From a virus, in UHGV virus genome UHGV-0335474: a stretch of DNA of 36,185 bases; one strand, 5' to 3'. The notes below the pieces were generated by a model. That model made no database searches. It was not told the DNA's origin and worked only from the letters and a program-made list of their open reading frames with translations. Position numbers and translations under genes: made by a program. Shown piece by piece: positions 5,116 through 36,185 of the stretch. Numbering within the stretch: position 1 is the stretch's first letter; the number at the start of each line of letters is the position of its first letter.

Positions 5116-6527
5116 CCTCGATTAATCCTATCTTTGAACCGTTCATTGAGGCGCATCGCTACAAAGTCGCCAAAGGCGGTCGAGGTAGCGGTAAGTCATG
5201 GGCAATTGCGAGGCTTCTTGTTGAAGCGGCGCGTCGGCAGCCTGTGCGTATTCTTTGCGCTCGTGAGCTGCAAAACAGTATCAGCGATTCGGTAATCAGG
5301 TTGCTTGAAGACACCATCGAGCGTGAAGGGTATTCGGCTGAGTTTGAAATTCAGCGTTCAATGATTCGTCATCTCGGAACGAATGCTGAATTCATGTTCT
5401 ACGGCATCAAAAACAACCCGACGAAGATTAAATCGCTCGAAGGCATTGATATCTGCTGGGTGGAAGAAGCGGAAGCGGTAACAAAGGAATCGTGGGATAT
5501 CCTGATACCAACCATCCGCAAGCCGTTTTCCGAAATATGGGTGAGCTTTAACCCGAAGAACATCCTCGACGATACCTATCAGCGATTCGTCGTAAATCCT
5601 CCTGATGATATTTGTCTGCTGACGGTGAACTACACCGACAACCCGCACTTTCCTGAAGTTCTCCGTCTGGAGATGGAAGAGTGTAAACGCAGAAATCCGA
5701 CACTGTATCGTCACATCTGGCTTGGTGAGCCAGTAAGCGCAAGTGATATGGCAATCATCAAACGTGAATGGCTTGAAGCCGCAACCGATGCGCACAAGAA
5801 ACTCGGATGGAAAGCGAAAGGCGCGGTTGTCTCTGCGCATGACCCGTCAGATACAGGGCCAGATGCTAAAGGTTACGCATCGCGTCACGGTTCGGTGGTT
5901 AAGCGCATTGCCGAAGGCCTGCTGATGGACATCAACGAGGGTGCTGACTGGGCTACTTCGCTGGCGATTGAAGACGGCGCTGACCACTACCTGTGGGATG
6001 GCGATGGTGTCGGTGCCGGGCTACGCAGACAGACAACGGAAGCGTTCTCCGGTAAGAAAATCACCGCCACGATGTTCAAGGGCAGCGAATCGCCATTCGA
6101 TGAAGATGCGCCTTATCAGGCCGGGGCATGGGCTGATGAAGTCGTGCAGGGCGACAACGTTCGCACTATTGGCGATGTGTTCCGCAATAAGCGAGCGCAA
6201 TTCTATTACGCGCTGGCTGACAGGCTGTATCTGACATATCGGGCGGTTGTTTACGGTGAGTATGCAGACCCCGACGACATGCTGAGTTTCGACAAAGAAG
6301 CGATAGGCGAGAAGATGCTGGAGAAGCTGTTTGCAGAACTGACGCAGATTCAGCGCAAATTCAATAACAACGGGAAGCTGGAGCTTATGACTAAGGTCGA
6401 AATGAAGCAGAAGCTCGGTATTCCATCTCCTAACCTGGCTGATGCACTGATGATGTGTATGCATTGCCCGGAGTCGGCTGCGCAACCAGACTATTCCAGT
6501 TACTCAATTCCTTGTGGTGTAGGTTGA
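5112..6527 (+). CDS. Terminase large subunit
   Basis: 471 aa; Walker A GGRGSGKS near the N-terminus, nuclease-type C-terminus. ATGA overlap with terS. Confidence 0.9.
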   Translation: MTSINPIFEPFIEAHRYKVAKGGRGSGKSWAIARLLVEAARRQPVRILCARELQNSISDSVIRLLEDTIEREGYSAEFEIQRSMIRHLGTNAEFMFYGIKNNPTKIKSLEGIDICWVEEAEAVTKESWDILIPTIRKPFSEIWVSFNPKNILDDTYQRFVVNPPDDICLLTVNYTDNPHFPEVLRLEMEECKRRNPTLYRHIWLGEPVSASDMAIIKREWLEAATDAHKKLGWKAKGAVVSAHDPSDTGPDAKGYASRHGSVVKRIAEGLLMDINEGADWATSLAIEDGADHYLWDGDGVGAGLRRQTTEAFSGKKITATMFKGSESPFDEDAPYQAGAWADEVVQGDNVRTIGDVFRNKRAQFYYALADRLYLTYRAVVYGEYADPDDMLSFDKEAIGEKMLEKLFAELTQIQRKFNNNGKLELMTKVEMKQKLGIPSPNLADALMMCMHCPESAAQPDYSSYSIPCGVG

Positions 6528-26606: not shown

Positions 26607-27785
26607 ATGGCTATAAGCGACACAAAACTGCGTACTATTTATGGTAAACCATATTCGGGCCCACAAGAAGTGGCTGATGCCGATGGCCTCAGCGTACGAA
26701 TTTCACCGAAGGGGGTCATCCAGTTCCAGTACCGCTATCGCTGGCATGGCAAGCCTAATCGACTTGGGCTTGGTCGATACCCATCCCTGTCTTTGAAGGA
26801 TGCCAGACAGATCACTGCTGACTTGCGAAAGCTCTATTTCTCAGGAACGGATCCACGCACCTATTTTGAAGAGAAGGTGGAGAACTCCATGACGGTCGCC
26901 CAGTGTCTCGACTACTGGTTCGACAATTACGTCTCTACAACTCTCAGAGAAAAGACCCAGGCACTTTACCGATCAACGGTTATGAAGCGCATGCATGACG
27001 CCTTTCCTAATCGTCCGGCATCTTCTATCACGGTTAAGCAATGGGTTGACCTGCTTACCGAAGAAGAAAGAGATAATCCACGCCGAGCAAGGCAGGTGCT
27101 AAGTCAACTAAGATCAGCAATAAGTTGGTGCATGCGGCGTCAGTTGATAGATAGTTGCGCAATTATGAGCATCCAGCCAAGGGACTTCGGCTCACGCGCT
27201 GAGGTAGGGGATCGGGTACTGTCGTATCACGAACTGGCTAAGATTTGGCTTGCTATTGAAAGAAGCCGTGCTTCTACGTCAAATAAGCTGCTTCATCAGA
27301 TGCTTATGCTGTGGGGGGCGAGGCTCTCAGAGCTTAGGCTGGCAACAAAGACAGAATTTGACCTGCTGGACAACGTATGGACCGTACCGAAAGAGCATAG
27401 CAAGATGGGTAATGTTATCCGCCGTCCAATCTTCGAACAAATTAAGCCTTTTCTCGAAAAGGCCATGACAACGTACAATGATGTTCTTTTCCCTGGAGAA
27501 GACATAAACAAACCGATCAGCATCGCTGCAGCCAACCGATTCGTAAATAGAATAAGGGGAGGGATGGATCTAGGTTACTGGCGAACACACGATTTCAGAA
27601 GAACGCTTGTTACACGGCTGTCCGAGATGAATGTCGAGCCTCATGTTACTGAGCGAATGCTCGGTCATGAACTTGGCGGGATAATGTCCGTATACAATAA
27701 ACACGACTGGATAGAGGCTCAGCGCAAAGCGTATGAGCTTCACGCTGATAAATTGTTCTGGCACATCAGGAGCATTTCTGATTAA
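26607..27785 (+). CDS. int: Tyrosine integrase
   Basis: 392 aa; conserved HDFRRT and GHELGGIMSVYNKHDW (H-x-x-R...Y catalytic region). Confidence 0.9.
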   Translation: MAISDTKLRTIYGKPYSGPQEVADADGLSVRISPKGVIQFQYRYRWHGKPNRLGLGRYPSLSLKDARQITADLRKLYFSGTDPRTYFEEKVENSMTVAQCLDYWFDNYVSTTLREKTQALYRSTVMKRMHDAFPNRPASSITVKQWVDLLTEEERDNPRRARQVLSQLRSAISWCMRRQLIDSCAIMSIQPRDFGSRAEVGDRVLSYHELAKIWLAIERSRASTSNKLLHQMLMLWGARLSELRLATKTEFDLLDNVWTVPKEHSKMGNVIRRPIFEQIKPFLEKAMTTYNDVLFPGEDINKPISIAAANRFVNRIRGGMDLGYWRTHDFRRTLVTRLSEMNVEPHVTERMLGHELGGIMSVYNKHDWIEAQRKAYELHADKLFWHIRSISD

Positions 27786-31027: not shown

Positions 31028-31615
31028 TCAGAAAGCAGGGTAATCGTTCTGGCTGTAACCATAATCATCTGCATGATTCTGGCTTACGTTTTTAGAGCGA
31101 TTGTCTTTATCTTTGAGATTGGCAACCATGTTGGCGATAGTTTCTGGTTGCTTGCCTTCTGCCTTTTCTTTAAGGGTTTGACCTGTTTGTGCAATAAACG
31201 GGATGCGTATTTCCATCTGGTAGTTGTCTGCGCCAGTCTTTTTGTTTGTGGTTAATACTTTCTGGAGCACTAACCCGATTTTCTTTCCATGAAATTCAGG
31301 TGCAACAAATTTACTGGCGGAAACCATATGCTGCGTTAATTGTCCAATCCCGGCACACCCCATCATGGCGTGAACGACATTTGCGCCAAATTTGTTTTCC
31401 GTTCCGTCATTTTTCTGAACACAGACGCTAAGATATTGGATTTTACGTCCGTCGTCGGATTCTCCAGAAAACTCAATAAATTTGGCTCCTTTTTCTGATT
31501 GCTTTAGTTCTGCTTCAGTAATGGTAATGATATGGGCGCCAGTTTCGTTAATAAAACCACCTTGCCCTGCGGTCAGTGCTGCTTCTTCGTTATAAGTAAA
31601 AATCACGTTGCTCAT
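31028..31615 (-). CDS. Hypothetical protein, possible ssDNA-binding partner of the Sak4-like ATPase
   Basis: 195 aa, translationally coupled to the upstream ATPase; acidic aromatic C-terminal tail (DDYGYSQNDYPAF) reminiscent of SSB tails. Confidence 0.4.
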   Translation of the reverse strand: MSNVIFTYNEEAALTAGQGGFINETGAHIITITEAELKQSEKGAKFIEFSGESDDGRKIQYLSVCVQKNDGTENKFGANVVHAMMGCAGIGQLTQHMVSASKFVAPEFHGKKIGLVLQKVLTTNKKTGADNYQMEIRIPFIAQTGQTLKEKAEGKQPETIANMVANLKDKDNRSKNVSQNHADDYGYSQNDYPAF

Positions 31616-32292
31616 GCGGCGTTTTCCTTAATTTGATGAACATTATTGATGCCGTAGTAATCACAAACAGTGGCATCGACGAAAGAGAGATCGTTATCAA
31701 TCTCATTGGAATCAAACATTCCCATTGGGGATTTGACAGTGTCTGCACCGTTGTTTTTCGTGGTGAAAAAGAACTGGTCATCGCGGGTAAGAGTGCGAAG
31801 AACTATAGTAAACATGCCTTCGACAGTGATTTTCTCGTCCAGCATTTTGCCGATAGTTTTCATTTTCACGCGCCCCATAGGGGTTTCTTCGGTATGTGCA
31901 AGAAAATAGACTCTCAGGTCATCAGGTGCATCCTGTGCAGCCTTAATCACCTCCCATGCGTGGCGGCCTATCTCAGTAAATTTATCAAACGATTTTTCTT
32001 CTGAGCGGCGCATAAACTCATTGCTCATCACATACTGGAAGTCATCAACAATAACGATTCTTTTTCCGTATTCGTGAGCACGCTTAATTACAGCAACTAT
32101 TACGTCCCATTTGTCAGTGGTAACTACGGTTCCTTTTTTTGCTCTGGCATCCCATGCAAGCCAGTCTTTTGATTTAAATGGTAGCGGCTTGCCTATTGGT
32201 TTTATAAGTATTGCTTCCTCTGGATTGATATTTCTCATGCTGGTTGATTTTCCGGTGCCAGATTCACCGAGTATTAATGTCGCAGTTCCCAT
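31612..32292 (-). CDS. Sak4-like RecA-fold ATPase (recombination / single-strand annealing)
   Basis: 226 aa; N-terminal Walker A GESGTGKST and Walker B-like IVIVDDF. Occupies the position of lambda Red genes. Confidence 0.6.
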   Translation of the reverse strand: MGTATLILGESGTGKSTSMRNINPEEAILIKPIGKPLPFKSKDWLAWDARAKKGTVVTTDKWDVIVAVIKRAHEYGKRIVIVDDFQYVMSNEFMRRSEEKSFDKFTEIGRHAWEVIKAAQDAPDDLRVYFLAHTEETPMGRVKMKTIGKMLDEKITVEGMFTIVLRTLTRDDQFFFTTKNNGADTVKSPMGMFDSNEIDNDLSFVDATVCDYYGINNVHQIKENAA

Positions 32293-33500: not shown

Positions 33501-33884
33501 TTACCTCGCTGTCAGTTGTTTTGATTTCCGATAGCCTGCCGCGTAAAGAGCTACATTTGGAAGACATACACCAGTTTCTGGTTGCTTATGTCCAAACTCA
33601 TTCGCGTACACAACGGCCGCTCGCTCCAGATTGCGTCTGTATTCTTTCTGTTGCCAGATCACGTCCTGTGCCATGAACTTAATTGGCTTAGCGTCTTCTA
33701 TGCGCTCAGGCGTTTCGTGAGTACCTTTAGCCTGAATCTGCGCTCTGCTTAGAGTAGGGCGGTGTAATACTTCTGAACTTATTGCTTCTTCGCGGGCCAG
33801 TACGCCGTTAGCTAATGCCTTTGCCTTTAAATGCTCACGACGACGAGAACGTGAATTGCCTTTGAACTGAGTTCTGCGTGTCAT
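33501..33884 (-). CDS. N: Antitermination protein N (P22 gene 24-like)
   Basis: 127 aa with an N-terminal Arg-rich motif (GNSRSRRREHLKAKA); the C-terminus ...VALYAAGYRKSKQLTAR matches the P22 gp24 end as recalled. First gene downstream of pL. Confidence 0.75.
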   Translation of the reverse strand: MTRRTQFKGNSRSRRREHLKAKALANGVLAREEAISSEVLHRPTLSRAQIQAKGTHETPERIEDAKPIKFMAQDVIWQQKEYRRNLERAAVVYANEFGHKQPETGVCLPNVALYAAGYRKSKQLTAR

Positions 33885-34064: not shown

Positions 34065-34132
34065 CGTAGATTCATATTCGAATCGTTGTATATTCACCGC
34101 CCTGGTGAGTAGTGCGTCCTGCTGATGTGTTT

Positions 34133-34195
34133 AGTATCACCGCCAGTGGTATTTATGTCAACACCGCCAGAGATAATTTATCACCGCAGATGGTT
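34133..34195 (-). promoter_or_regulatory. Lambda-type OL1-OL2-OL3 operators with pL promoter
   Basis: TATCACCGCCAGTGGTA (34135-51), CAACACCGCCAGAGATA (34159-75), TATCACCGCAGATGGTT (34179-95); minus-strand -35 TTGACA and -10 GATACT. Matches the lambda OL region as I recall it. Confidence 0.85.
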
Positions 34196-34352
34196 ATCTG
34201 TATGTTTTTTATATAGATTTATTTTTTTGCAGGGGTGTGTGGCTTGGGAGGTGATCGAGAGATCTGAATTGCGATGTTTAGTGAGTTGTATCTATTAATT
34301 TTCAAATAAATACAATTGGTTATGTGTTATTGGGTGAAGGGGATCGTGAGGC

Positions 34353-34378
34353 AAAGAAAACCCGGCACTGGGGCCGGG
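34353..34378 (-). terminator. timm-like rho-independent terminator at the end of the cI operon
   Basis: Minus strand reads a CCCGGC...GCCGGG hairpin followed by TTTTCTTTG; homologous to the lambda terminator downstream of rexB. Confidence 0.65.
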
Positions 34379-34387
34379 TTGGTTGAT

Positions 34388-35409
34388 TTATAGTTTAACC
34401 ACCATCCTATCAATGGCTTCTAAGCAAGATTGTTTATATGGGGCATTAACTTTTACCCTTCTGTTCATAACTCGTACACTACCTGTTGGTAGGATCGAAA
34501 ATGGACATCCTTTAGCAAAGGCAACAACACCAGTTGTCTGAAAATCTTTAATATTTACCACTCCCTCTTCAATATTTTCGAAGTCGAAAATTTCAGGGTT
34601 ACTTAGTAATAGTTGCTGAATATCATTATCGATTGATTTTAGAACTGCGGCATAGGCTGATGCAGGCCCCATATACTGTGTAAGACGGTTTTTTGCGATC
34701 ATATGAACTTTGGGTAGTGGTCTGCTCACCGCGGTAAGTTTGTTTGCAAATGCGTAGGATGCATAAATATCAGATGGCAACTTTAATCCATAAATCAAAG
34801 AGAAAGCATTTTGAATGGCGCGACGAGAGGAATCATCAGCCATAACTGGCAAGATGAGCTTTTCTACAGCAGCTAATGCTATTTGAGTATAAATTGAAAA
34901 ACTAGGATTACAGTCAATAAATAAAACATCGTACTCATCATTTAGATCTTTAATAAGATCATTAATCCAATCAATGATGCTTACCCATGCATTTGTTCCT
35001 GGAATCTGCTGATTAGCAAGAGTGTTGATGGCGTTTGCTTGAAGCTCAAGAAGCGGGTCACCGCATACCAACGATATATTGGCTGGAATATGTTCGTTGA
35101 ATTTTTTTGGGTGTGTCAAATAATCGTGGGCATCAACAATGGGTTTTTGATAAGGCGTCGGGAGGCGCATTTGGAAGTAGCCACCCAAAGTACATCTATT
35201 ATTTATATCATGCCTAGTCAATAAGTTTATGCTTCCATTACCTATTAACCCCCCAAGAAAAAGCTCTGACAAGTTTGCCTGTGGGCACACATCAATAACC
35301 AACACGCGCTCAAGCGGGTGAATTTCTGCATATCTGCAAATAGCTTGAAATGACAGGCTTGTTTTCCCTGTTCCTCCCTTGTTGTTCCATATAGCATATT
35401 TCTTCATCA
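34388..35409 (-). CDS. ParA/MinD-superfamily ATPase with C-terminal extension, in the rexAB slot
   Basis: Deviant Walker A KGGTGKT, A' motif VLVIDVCPQAN, Walker B YDVLFIDCNPS. Start at MMKK (ATG 35409 or 35406) after an AGGAG SD; the track ORF from 35482 is an upstream extension. Confidence 0.7.
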
Positions 35410-35578
35410 TAAACTCCTGGTTAACGATGTCATTGCTGGTTAATGTTTTACCATTGGTAAAGTGGTGCACCAAGAGTGACACGGTAAACCAAATAGATCA
35501 AGACTTATGGTAAACGATTTACCAGTGGTGACATCGATAACCGAAAAAGACTGCATTTCTGCAGCCTGTTTCACACAA

Positions 35579-36185
<607 letters not shown>

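Follow-up and report, generated by a model that had tools for sequence, protein, structure and literature searches.

Current understanding treats ParA/MinD ATPases as positioning machines with two components, the ATPase and an indispensable partner protein. The interval between the phage repressor gene cI and the antiterminator gene N is a known mosaic hotspot (Owen et al., citing Degnan 2007; PMC8585504) and a documented one for lysogen-expressed defence or toxin-antitoxin cargo, namely rexAB, bstA and hicAB. The bstA locus in this interval has, at its 5′ end, a DNA element for self-immunity (PMC8585504). One case of a solitary ParA-like gene within an immunity region has been published: in Gifsy-1 such a gene lowers the phage yield (PMC9879122). 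Here we describe a ParA/MinD ATPase gene that, together with its own predicted control elements, takes exactly the place of rexAB in the lambda-type immunity region of UHGV virus genome UHGV-0335474, a stretch of 36,185 nucleotides (nt) referred to below as the window. The family to which this ATPase belongs appears to act alone. Its conservation is like that of core housekeeping proteins, yet the gene is sporadic, horizontally spread and repeatedly found in the slot of RexAB, BstA and HicAB.

Exchange of rexAB for an ATPase gene

We compared the window with phage lambda (NC_001416) by blastn and obtained two blocks. Window 34094-34380 corresponds to lambda 35550-35826 (88.5% identity), contains OL1-3, pL and timm, and reaches as far as the rexB stop. 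Window 35578-36086 corresponds to lambda 37226-37734, the 3′ part of cI (97.6% nucleotide identity), and begins 1 nt before the cI stop (35579). Between the two junctions blastn found no nucleotide similarity to lambda. The replaced segment, 34381-35577, measures 1197 bp and its rexA-rexB counterpart in lambda 1399 bp. The three operators are identical in letters to those of lambda, and a promoter scan placed the pL hexamers TTGACA/GATACT at 34161-34133. A sequence-only reading of this DNA had described lambda flanks, with timm, OL1-3 and pL on one side, around a single gene put precisely in the place of rexAB; the blastn junctions and the operator sequences bear this out. The features of the exchanged segment and its borders are as follows.

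34133-34195, minus strand: lambda-type pL and OL1-3 (sequence, promoter scan, lambda homology), with OL1 at 34135-34151, OL2 at 34159-34175 and OL3 at 34179-34195
34359-34380, minus strand: timm hairpin common to lambda, acting as the cassette terminator (blastn, terminator scan, folding; annotated Timm in phage CL707)
34380/34381: left junction
34388-35407, minus strand: ATPase gene, 339 amino acids (aa), TAA stop at 34388-34390, the sole open reading frame (ORF) in the segment
34448-34483, minus strand: beta-hairpin GSVRVMNRRVKV, residues 309-320, missing from the 250-aa ParA core (secondary structure of the AlphaFold2 (AF2) model)
34901-34933, minus strand: Walker B, YDVLFIDCNPS, residues 159-169 (D165, N167, P168 and S169 invariant)
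35273-35305, minus strand: Walker A′, VLVIDVCPQAN, residues 35-45 (D39, C41, P42, Q43, A44 and N45 invariant)
35360-35380, minus strand: deviant Walker A, KGGTGKT, residues 10-16, signature lysine K10 (invariant in 30 homologues)
35577/35578: right junction
35579-36185, minus strand: 3′ part of the lambda-type cI gene, truncated by the window edge (blastn, ORF listing)

That rexAB can be replaced by other cargo is already known. In the same slot, sister phages with lambda immunity carry hicAB (mEp234, HK106), gp48/gp49 (HK97), a gene for a 301-aa protein (CL707) or one for a NYN-domain protein (ev099).

The product of the gene belongs to the ParA/MinD (SIMIBI, deviant Walker A) superfamily: it has the deviant Walker A motif, the A′ and B aspartates, the fold and an above-threshold family profile. 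It retains the full set of motifs for catalysis and dimer formation known from DNA-binding ParA proteins. The three motifs had been named in the sequence-only reading, and their key residues proved invariant, with K10, G11, G12, T13, G14, K15 and T16 of Walker A unchanged in 30/30 diverse homologues. In the profile search that this reading had proposed, Pfam AAA_31 and CbiA scored above threshold. PHROG 164, 'ParA-like partition protein', was assigned to the ATPase, and the NCBIfam partition equivalogs fell far under their cutoffs (ParA_partition 35 bits vs 180, partition_RepA 40 vs 348). The closest structures are the DNA-segregating or cargo-positioning ParA proteins 8ray, McdA, ParA2 and pSM19035 delta. 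An N-terminal helix-turn-helix is absent, as Walker A starts at residue 10 and the AF2 model opens with a strand at 2-7. Of the 340 aa first given to the protein, the upstream in-frame ATG at 35410 would indeed allow 340, but the homologues have 339 aa, and the second of the two ATGs, at 35407, is therefore the probable start. The ~90 extra residues, first read as a C-terminal extension, are instead scattered: a profile alignment to an approximate sequence of Bacillus subtilis Soj puts residues 1-190 on Soj 1-150, which leaves insertions around 50-110 and additions in the last third. Judged from the model, the hairpin at residues 309-320 is a candidate DNA-reading element.

Leader of the cassette and its repeats

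The ATPase gene was at first thought to begin right after the cI stop. In fact a leader of 168-171 nt (35411-35578) with a terminator-like hairpin intervenes, and in place of the reported lack of an adjacent centromere-like repeat it holds palindromes and a 36-nt inverted repeat. Homologous repeats recur in the closest relatives (group A, 89-100% identity), which lie on enterobacterial viral contigs directly downstream of a repressor gene and on the same strand.

35414-35418, minus strand: Shine-Dalgarno sequence AGGAG (sequence)
35419-35454, minus strand: promoter-proximal arm of the inverted repeat, including ATGACATCGTTAACC at 35419-35433 (repeat search; conserved in the group A alignment)
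35447-35461, minus strand: palindrome TTTACC-AAT-GGTAAA (sequence)
35464-35471, no strand assigned: palindrome GGTGCACC (sequence)
35473-35501, minus strand: putative own promoter, with −35 TTGATC at 35496-35501, weak −10 CACTCT at 35473-35478 and, between them, 17 nt that end in TGT
35507-35542, minus strand: distal arm of the inverted repeat, including GGTTATCGATGTCAC and the palindrome GGTAAA-TCG-TTTACC at 35509-35523 (repeat search)
35541-35567, minus strand: terminator-like hairpin AGGCTGCAGAAATGCAGTCT (35548-35567) plus T-run, with which the cassette starts (terminator scan, folding)

From cI towards the ATPase gene, the leader reads hairpin, GGTTATCGATGTCAC, GGTAAA-TCG-TTTACC, TTGATC, GGTTTACCGTGTCAC, GGTGCACC, TTTACC-AAT-GGTAAA, ATGACATCGTTAACC. 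The hairpin lies 11 nt past the cI stop and folds with −18.7 kcal/mol (z −3.4); group A relatives keep stronger terminators there (GGTCGCAGAAATGCGGCC-T7). The arms of the 36-nt composite inverted repeat are 81% complementary and flank the promoter-like site, and the repeat unit GGTTTACCGTGTCAC (35476-35490) overlaps it. Aligning the leaders of 15 related cassettes gave the consensus terminator, GGTTAACGATGTCAC-CAnTGGTAAAnnGTTTACCA, TTGATC, second unit copy, inverted copy, ribosome-binding site. The TTG of the −35 element is invariant over 15 group A upstream regions, and relatives carry TTGACA-palindrome-TATAAT at the equivalent position. Over the whole window the palindrome pattern matched 5 times vs 1.26 in shuffles, and these matches cluster at 35419-35542. 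We infer that the ATPase gene probably has its own promoter at 35473-35501. A simple promoter scan of the window made no call at this site; the promoter that the scanner did call (ATGACA-16-TATGAT, 35433-35406) was dismissed, as its −10 overlaps the start codon. Read from these predicted elements, the cassette appears to have the classic moron layout of terminator, promoter, gene and terminator.

The arrangement bears on how the gene would be expressed. Co-expression with the repressor, as proposed in the sequence-only reading, was an assumption only, and the cassette opens with the terminator-like hairpin and its own predicted promoter/operator set. In the sister subgroup (group B, 74-76% identity, Hafnia/Serratia type) the cassette occupies the cI-N slot too, but convergent with cI, and is therefore probably independent of the repressor promoter pRM and transcriptionally autonomous. 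Together, the hairpin and the inverted orientation argue against obligatory co-transcription with cI.

Repeats are inherited with the gene far beyond these phages. GTCCA/TGGAC occurs 1.7 times per 140 nt upstream of family members vs 0.23 in control windows; at least three copies were present in 38/127 contexts vs 0.2% of control windows, and the palindrome GTCCW-N2-6-WGGAC in 45/127. Palindromes of the GTCCA-N4-TGGAC type overlie the family promoters. Architectures of the form TTGACA-GTCCAnnnnTGGAC-TATAAT were seen in Proteobacteria and Actinobacteria, and the Stenotrophomonas upstream region reads TTGACA-CGTCCATTTTGGACG-CTATAAT-GTCC, with like sets in Nocardia, Streptomyces, cyanobacteria and others; metagenome-assembled genomes (MAGs) of archaea have 2-4 repeat copies behind TATA-like boxes. 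The motif changes along with the protein: most members have GTCCA, some Firmicutes/Actinobacteria GTACA, low-GC members other palindromes, and the subgroup of the window GTAAA, as GGTAAA-N3-TTTACC. Group B has a palindrome overlapping the −10 and then tandem 9-bp units (CACGATGTC / GTCCACGRY), in 3-4 copies up to 10.2 (locus L043, 2615-2706) and ~74 (locus L041, 5313-5978), the last being a 666-bp array that abuts the ribosome-binding site. Some 74 nine-bp units exceed what an operator needs. The contexts have no other gene in common, and the phyla of the hosts differ in their transcription machinery; most simply, then, the ATPase itself would be the recogniser and the upstream repeats its probable binding sites.

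Conservation, spread and genomic contexts

The family is large and unusually tight. Among 5.8 billion protein clusters we found 5,338 relatives, and the best 120 of these are all 338-367 aa long and 64-98% identical; their hosts are Salmonella, E. coli, Rahnella, Serratia, Hafnia, Yersinia, Streptomyces, Mycobacterium, Nocardia, Xanthomonas and Stenotrophomonas. A scan of one genome per species in 100,044 species gave 175 encoding stretches, with 57-67% identity to the window protein among the matches listed, from Cyanobacteria, Acidobacteria, Verrucomicrobia, Firmicutes, Bacteroidetes, bacteria of the candidate phyla radiation, Alpha-/Beta-/Gammaproteobacteria and Actinobacteria; three stretches come from archaeal MAGs, where mis-binning is possible. 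In clustering at 50% the tight family falls into few clusters, and ~100 distant clusters were found at E < 1e-30. In their sources the members are named only 'ParA family protein', 'AAA family ATPase' or 'BcsQ'. The exact window protein is present in draft E. coli and Salmonella genomes, and in 5,426 complete E. coli genomes (megablast) only the timm flank was matched.

The ATPase is under very strong purifying selection. Across 30 aligned homologues 130 positions are invariant, the ratio of nonsynonymous to synonymous rates (dN/dS) is 0.04 relative to the copy of Salmonella phage S.Inf 5-2, and phage copies that have kept ~90% of their amino acids in common already show saturation at synonymous sites. 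The GC content of the gene lies under that of its flanks almost everywhere, and at third codon positions (GC3) it ranges from 0.19 to 0.91, tracking the host, while protein identity stays at 57-67%. The copies are therefore old and partly ameliorated. To judge by these comparisons, conservation of core-housekeeping grade is found here in a sporadic, accessory gene.

We then clustered all against all the 1,897 neighbouring ORFs of 153 loci, which represent 128 independent contexts. No partner gene is conserved among them, and only lambdoid phage genes recur. This synteny survey, one of the checks proposed with the sequence-only reading, describes a solitary ATPase with no shared neighbour family. 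The claim that no ParB is adjacent also holds: there is no ParB/ParG-type gene beside the ATPase or in the 128 contexts, the 168-nt leader has no conserved ORF, and on the other side there is no room for a parB gene because the ATPase stop lies 7 nt from the timm hairpin.

Within phages the cassette keeps its place while the repressor changes. Among the upstream proteins tested 15/18 are repressors with a helix-turn-helix and an S24 domain, 14-62% identical to lambda cI and representing at least 11 alleles. S.Inf 5-2 (OR850760) has a different repressor and the same cassette. In this phage (L003, ~5766-5830) the diverged last ~24 nt of a lambda-type cI follow the stop of the non-lambda repressor, with homology from window 35602; from this junction fossil we conclude that the cassette passed between heteroimmune phages via recombination at the 3′ end of cI. 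Distant homologues (31-35% identity) lie directly after cI in Pseudomonas phage phi297 and Klebsiella phage ST11-VIM1phi8.2.

Outside phages the gene is mostly a single-gene islet among ordinary chromosomal genes. PADLOC and Pfam, applied to 145 neighbour ORFs in 76 cellular contexts, returned mostly housekeeping functions; the exceptions were 2 AbiEi, 2 PD-Lambda-5_B, methyltransferases, 3 integrases and 2 TnpB. On the Hafnia paralvei chromosome (L007, 1-2366) a homologue has an S24 fragment and an integrase as its neighbours, with GmrSD and an AAA_15/DUF3696 ATPase 5-8 kb off, a setting that looks like a decayed prophage or a defence islet. In Streptomyces sp. DK15 (L011, 7273-14381) the gene for the NAD-dependent DNA ligase is interrupted by ~5 kb of inserted DNA with a homologue and only two further genes, both for tyrosine recombinases (415 and 800 aa); these contents suggest a minimal integrative element. 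Four contigs of Streptomyces sp. TRM49041 (L151-L154) have a 100% identical 9,645-bp stretch that includes a homologue and reaches the contig ends; it probably represents a multi-copy element or a repeat of at least 9.6 kb.

On plasmids the tight family is rare, with ~5 genuine ones out of 72,556. A partition-dependent plasmid origin was considered and rejected, as 17 near-identical 5.87-kb Salmonella 'plasmids' proved to be parts of a lambdoid immunity region in circular form. The circle examined (L158; NZ_CP148796.1, serovar Infantis) contains cII, a cro-like gene, a cI-like gene, the ATPase gene, a 69-aa ORF annotated FumD and an N-like gene. Circles of this type carry no annotated replication gene and may be assembly artefacts or excised mini-circles. 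A 39%-identical subfamily (352 aa) is the main cargo of 5-kb ColE1-like mobilisable plasmids, ~130 of them similar to E. coli pSUH-5 (L159, 1269-2327), in E. coli, Salmonella, Klebsiella and Enterobacter. This plasmid relative has no ParB gene, and the GTCCA-type operator architecture is missing from these plasmids as well as from phi297 and the Klebsiella phage.

The phage itself is a P22-like podovirus prophage; its genes for virion, tailspike and ejection proteins find their matches in Sf101, CUS-3 and E212. With an ORF of integrase size at 26607-27785 on the P22-like backbone, it looks integrative. Its early-control region is lambda-like, and the N gene to the left of the cassette is of the HK97 rather than the lambda type. 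We thus observe a three-way mosaic (window 1-27785 and 33501-33884) of P22-like virion genes, lambda cI/OL/pL immunity and an HK97-type N antiterminator. The early-left region also contains, at 31612-32292 on the minus strand, a 226-aa ORF with a classical P-loop, GESGTGKST.

Possible roles and comparison with known systems

What could a solitary ATPase do in this slot? The reading we favour, and hold tentatively, is that of an autonomous moron whose ATPase binds DNA, represses its own gene and interferes with other DNA elements. Its parts would be, in order, an insulating terminator, a promoter buried in repeats, the gene of a ParA-class ATPase, and timm. ATP-bound dimers would bind the upstream repeats and thereby repress their own promoter, which would set the protein level in the lysogen independently of pRM. 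Their ATP-dependent DNA binding might also disturb incoming or replicating DNA elements, resulting in superinfection exclusion or defence, and the repeat array in cis might be a high-affinity sink which, amplified on induction, could spare the phage's own DNA. Interference was rated above other roles because of the known cargo of the slot (RexAB, BstA, HicAB and the Gifsy-1 ParA-like region), and by this analogy we hypothesise an exclusion or abortive-infection role. A bolder form, which we consider doubtful, makes the family a single-protein pan-prokaryotic module: a ParA-class ATPase with its own DNA recognition and a cis array (operator and sponge) would exclude foreign DNA, with array amplification as the self-immunity of the carrier, or it would be an addiction module with a DNA site in the part of the 'antitoxin'.

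Several results weigh against interference. The ATPase contains no nuclease, toxin, membrane or effector domain, and its longer distant relatives (n=10) have the ATPase domain alone, with no informative domain fusion. PADLOC-DB v2.0.0 gave 0 families at E <= 1 for the ATPase, and the 76 cellular contexts gave no clear defence-island signal. A degree of conservation comparable to that of RecA is seldom seen in defence proteins whose targets are phage components. The weak predicted −10 (CACTCT) and the only moderate post-cI hairpin make read-through from pRM possible. Residues 310-312, in the candidate hairpin, have the highest mutual information with operator type among the alignment columns, and this is a lead only, because one clade drives the signal and phylogeny confounds it.

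The cassette is not a ParABS partition system, as it lacks the partner gene, a replicon in need of partition and the equivalog scores. The sequence-only reading had likewise thought a partition role unlikely, and the missing ParB, the integrative look of the prophage and the near-absence of the family from plasmids all argue in the same direction. There is a variant that does without ParB: the ATPase would bind the cis array as a centromere-like site and the nucleoid non-specifically, anchoring or distributing the carrier DNA. The nearest structures do segregate DNA or position cargo, the array grows to 666 bp of 9-bp units, and 5-kb plasmids often carry the distant 39%-identical subfamily. 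Type Ib and type II centromeres typically consist of repeat arrays upstream of parA. We nevertheless judge such tethering improbable, as a ParB or adaptor gene occurs in 0/128 contexts, the window phage looks integrative, the tight family is so rare on genuine plasmids, its cellular copies are mostly chromosomal single-gene islets, and the scores for the partition equivalogs fall far short of the cutoffs.

Soj- and ParA-type proteins can regulate transcription or replication. The ATPase might thus serve the prophage's own cycle by tuning induction, replication or lysogeny maintenance, for instance by acting between OL and OR, and its constant place between cI and pL/N across heteroimmune phages fits such a role, as does the Gifsy-1 region, which with its ParA-like gene moderates the yield of induced phage (PMC9879122). 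This is also improbable: a 57-67% identical protein with the same repeats stands beside housekeeping genes outside prophages in many phyla, and in the window the motif matches cluster only at the ATPase's own promoter. Still less probable in our view is a selfish stabiliser, in which free ATPase would be harmful on the nucleoid and restrained by autorepression and the cis array, so that loss of the locus is counter-selected. A single gene with presumably tight autoregulation, sporadic yet long-lived in genomes with its GC under that of the flanks, would suit it; the array resembles a sponge, and the isolated islet outlasts prophage decay, as at the Hafnia locus beside the S24 fragment. There is, however, no antitoxin gene, the mechanism is without precedent and the toxicity only supposed. 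Finally, an inert passenger or decaying remnant is hardly credible: the ORF is intact, and the 130 invariant positions, the dN/dS of 0.04 and the saturation of synonymous sites at 90% amino-acid identity contradict it.

In the literature we found no description of the tight pan-bacterial 339-aa family, of its promoter-embedded repeat arrays, or of its two-orientation occupancy of the cI-N slot. If defence or exclusion is true, this would be a mechanistically new single-gene system and would give a handle on how cargo of this slot spares its own phage. A self-regulating module for exclusion or addiction would make the partition ATPase fold the basis of a new class of defence or selfish elements, and a ParB-less tether or ATP-dependent autorepressor would extend the known roles of the ParA fold. 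The cassette is small (1.2 kb) and directly testable in E. coli or Salmonella.

One of the closest known systems is STM14_3218-3220 of Gifsy-1 in strain 14028s (PMC9879122), where a ParB-less ParA-like ATPase in a lambdoid immunity region is expressed in the lysogen and affects the yield; its gene is 840 bp and works within a three-gene region, and the likeness is drawn from its published description. BstA-aba of the Salmonella prophage BTP1 (PMC8585504) is similar in being a single gene for a DNA-binding protein directly downstream of the repressor with a cis element at its 5′ end. However, BstA belongs to the KilA-N family and is not an ATPase, and aba is an experimentally shown 63-bp self-immunity site, whereas the role of the window repeats is a putative one.

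Among ParA proteins, those of type Ib and their relatives (8ray, pSM19035 delta 2oze, pNOB8 ParA, McdA) resemble the window ATPase in the deviant Walker A with its signature lysine, in A′ and B, in having no N-terminal DNA-binding domain and in the repeats upstream of the gene. The window ATPase differs in having no centromere-binding partner and ~90 extra inserted residues, in not residing on low-copy plasmids, in a far more conserved family and, probably, in site-specific recognition by the ATPase itself. With the type Ia autorepressors (P1 ParA, F SopA) it may have in common the repression of its own promoter via operator repeats. They use for this an N-terminal helix-turn-helix of ~100 aa and ParB as co-repressor, and the window ATPase has neither. 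RexAB of lambda, finally, occupies the identical cI-timm slot in a phage of lambda immunity and is unrelated in sequence. While RexAB is a sensor plus a membrane protein transcribed from pRM/pLit, the window cassette encodes one soluble ATPase and has its own predicted terminator and promoter.

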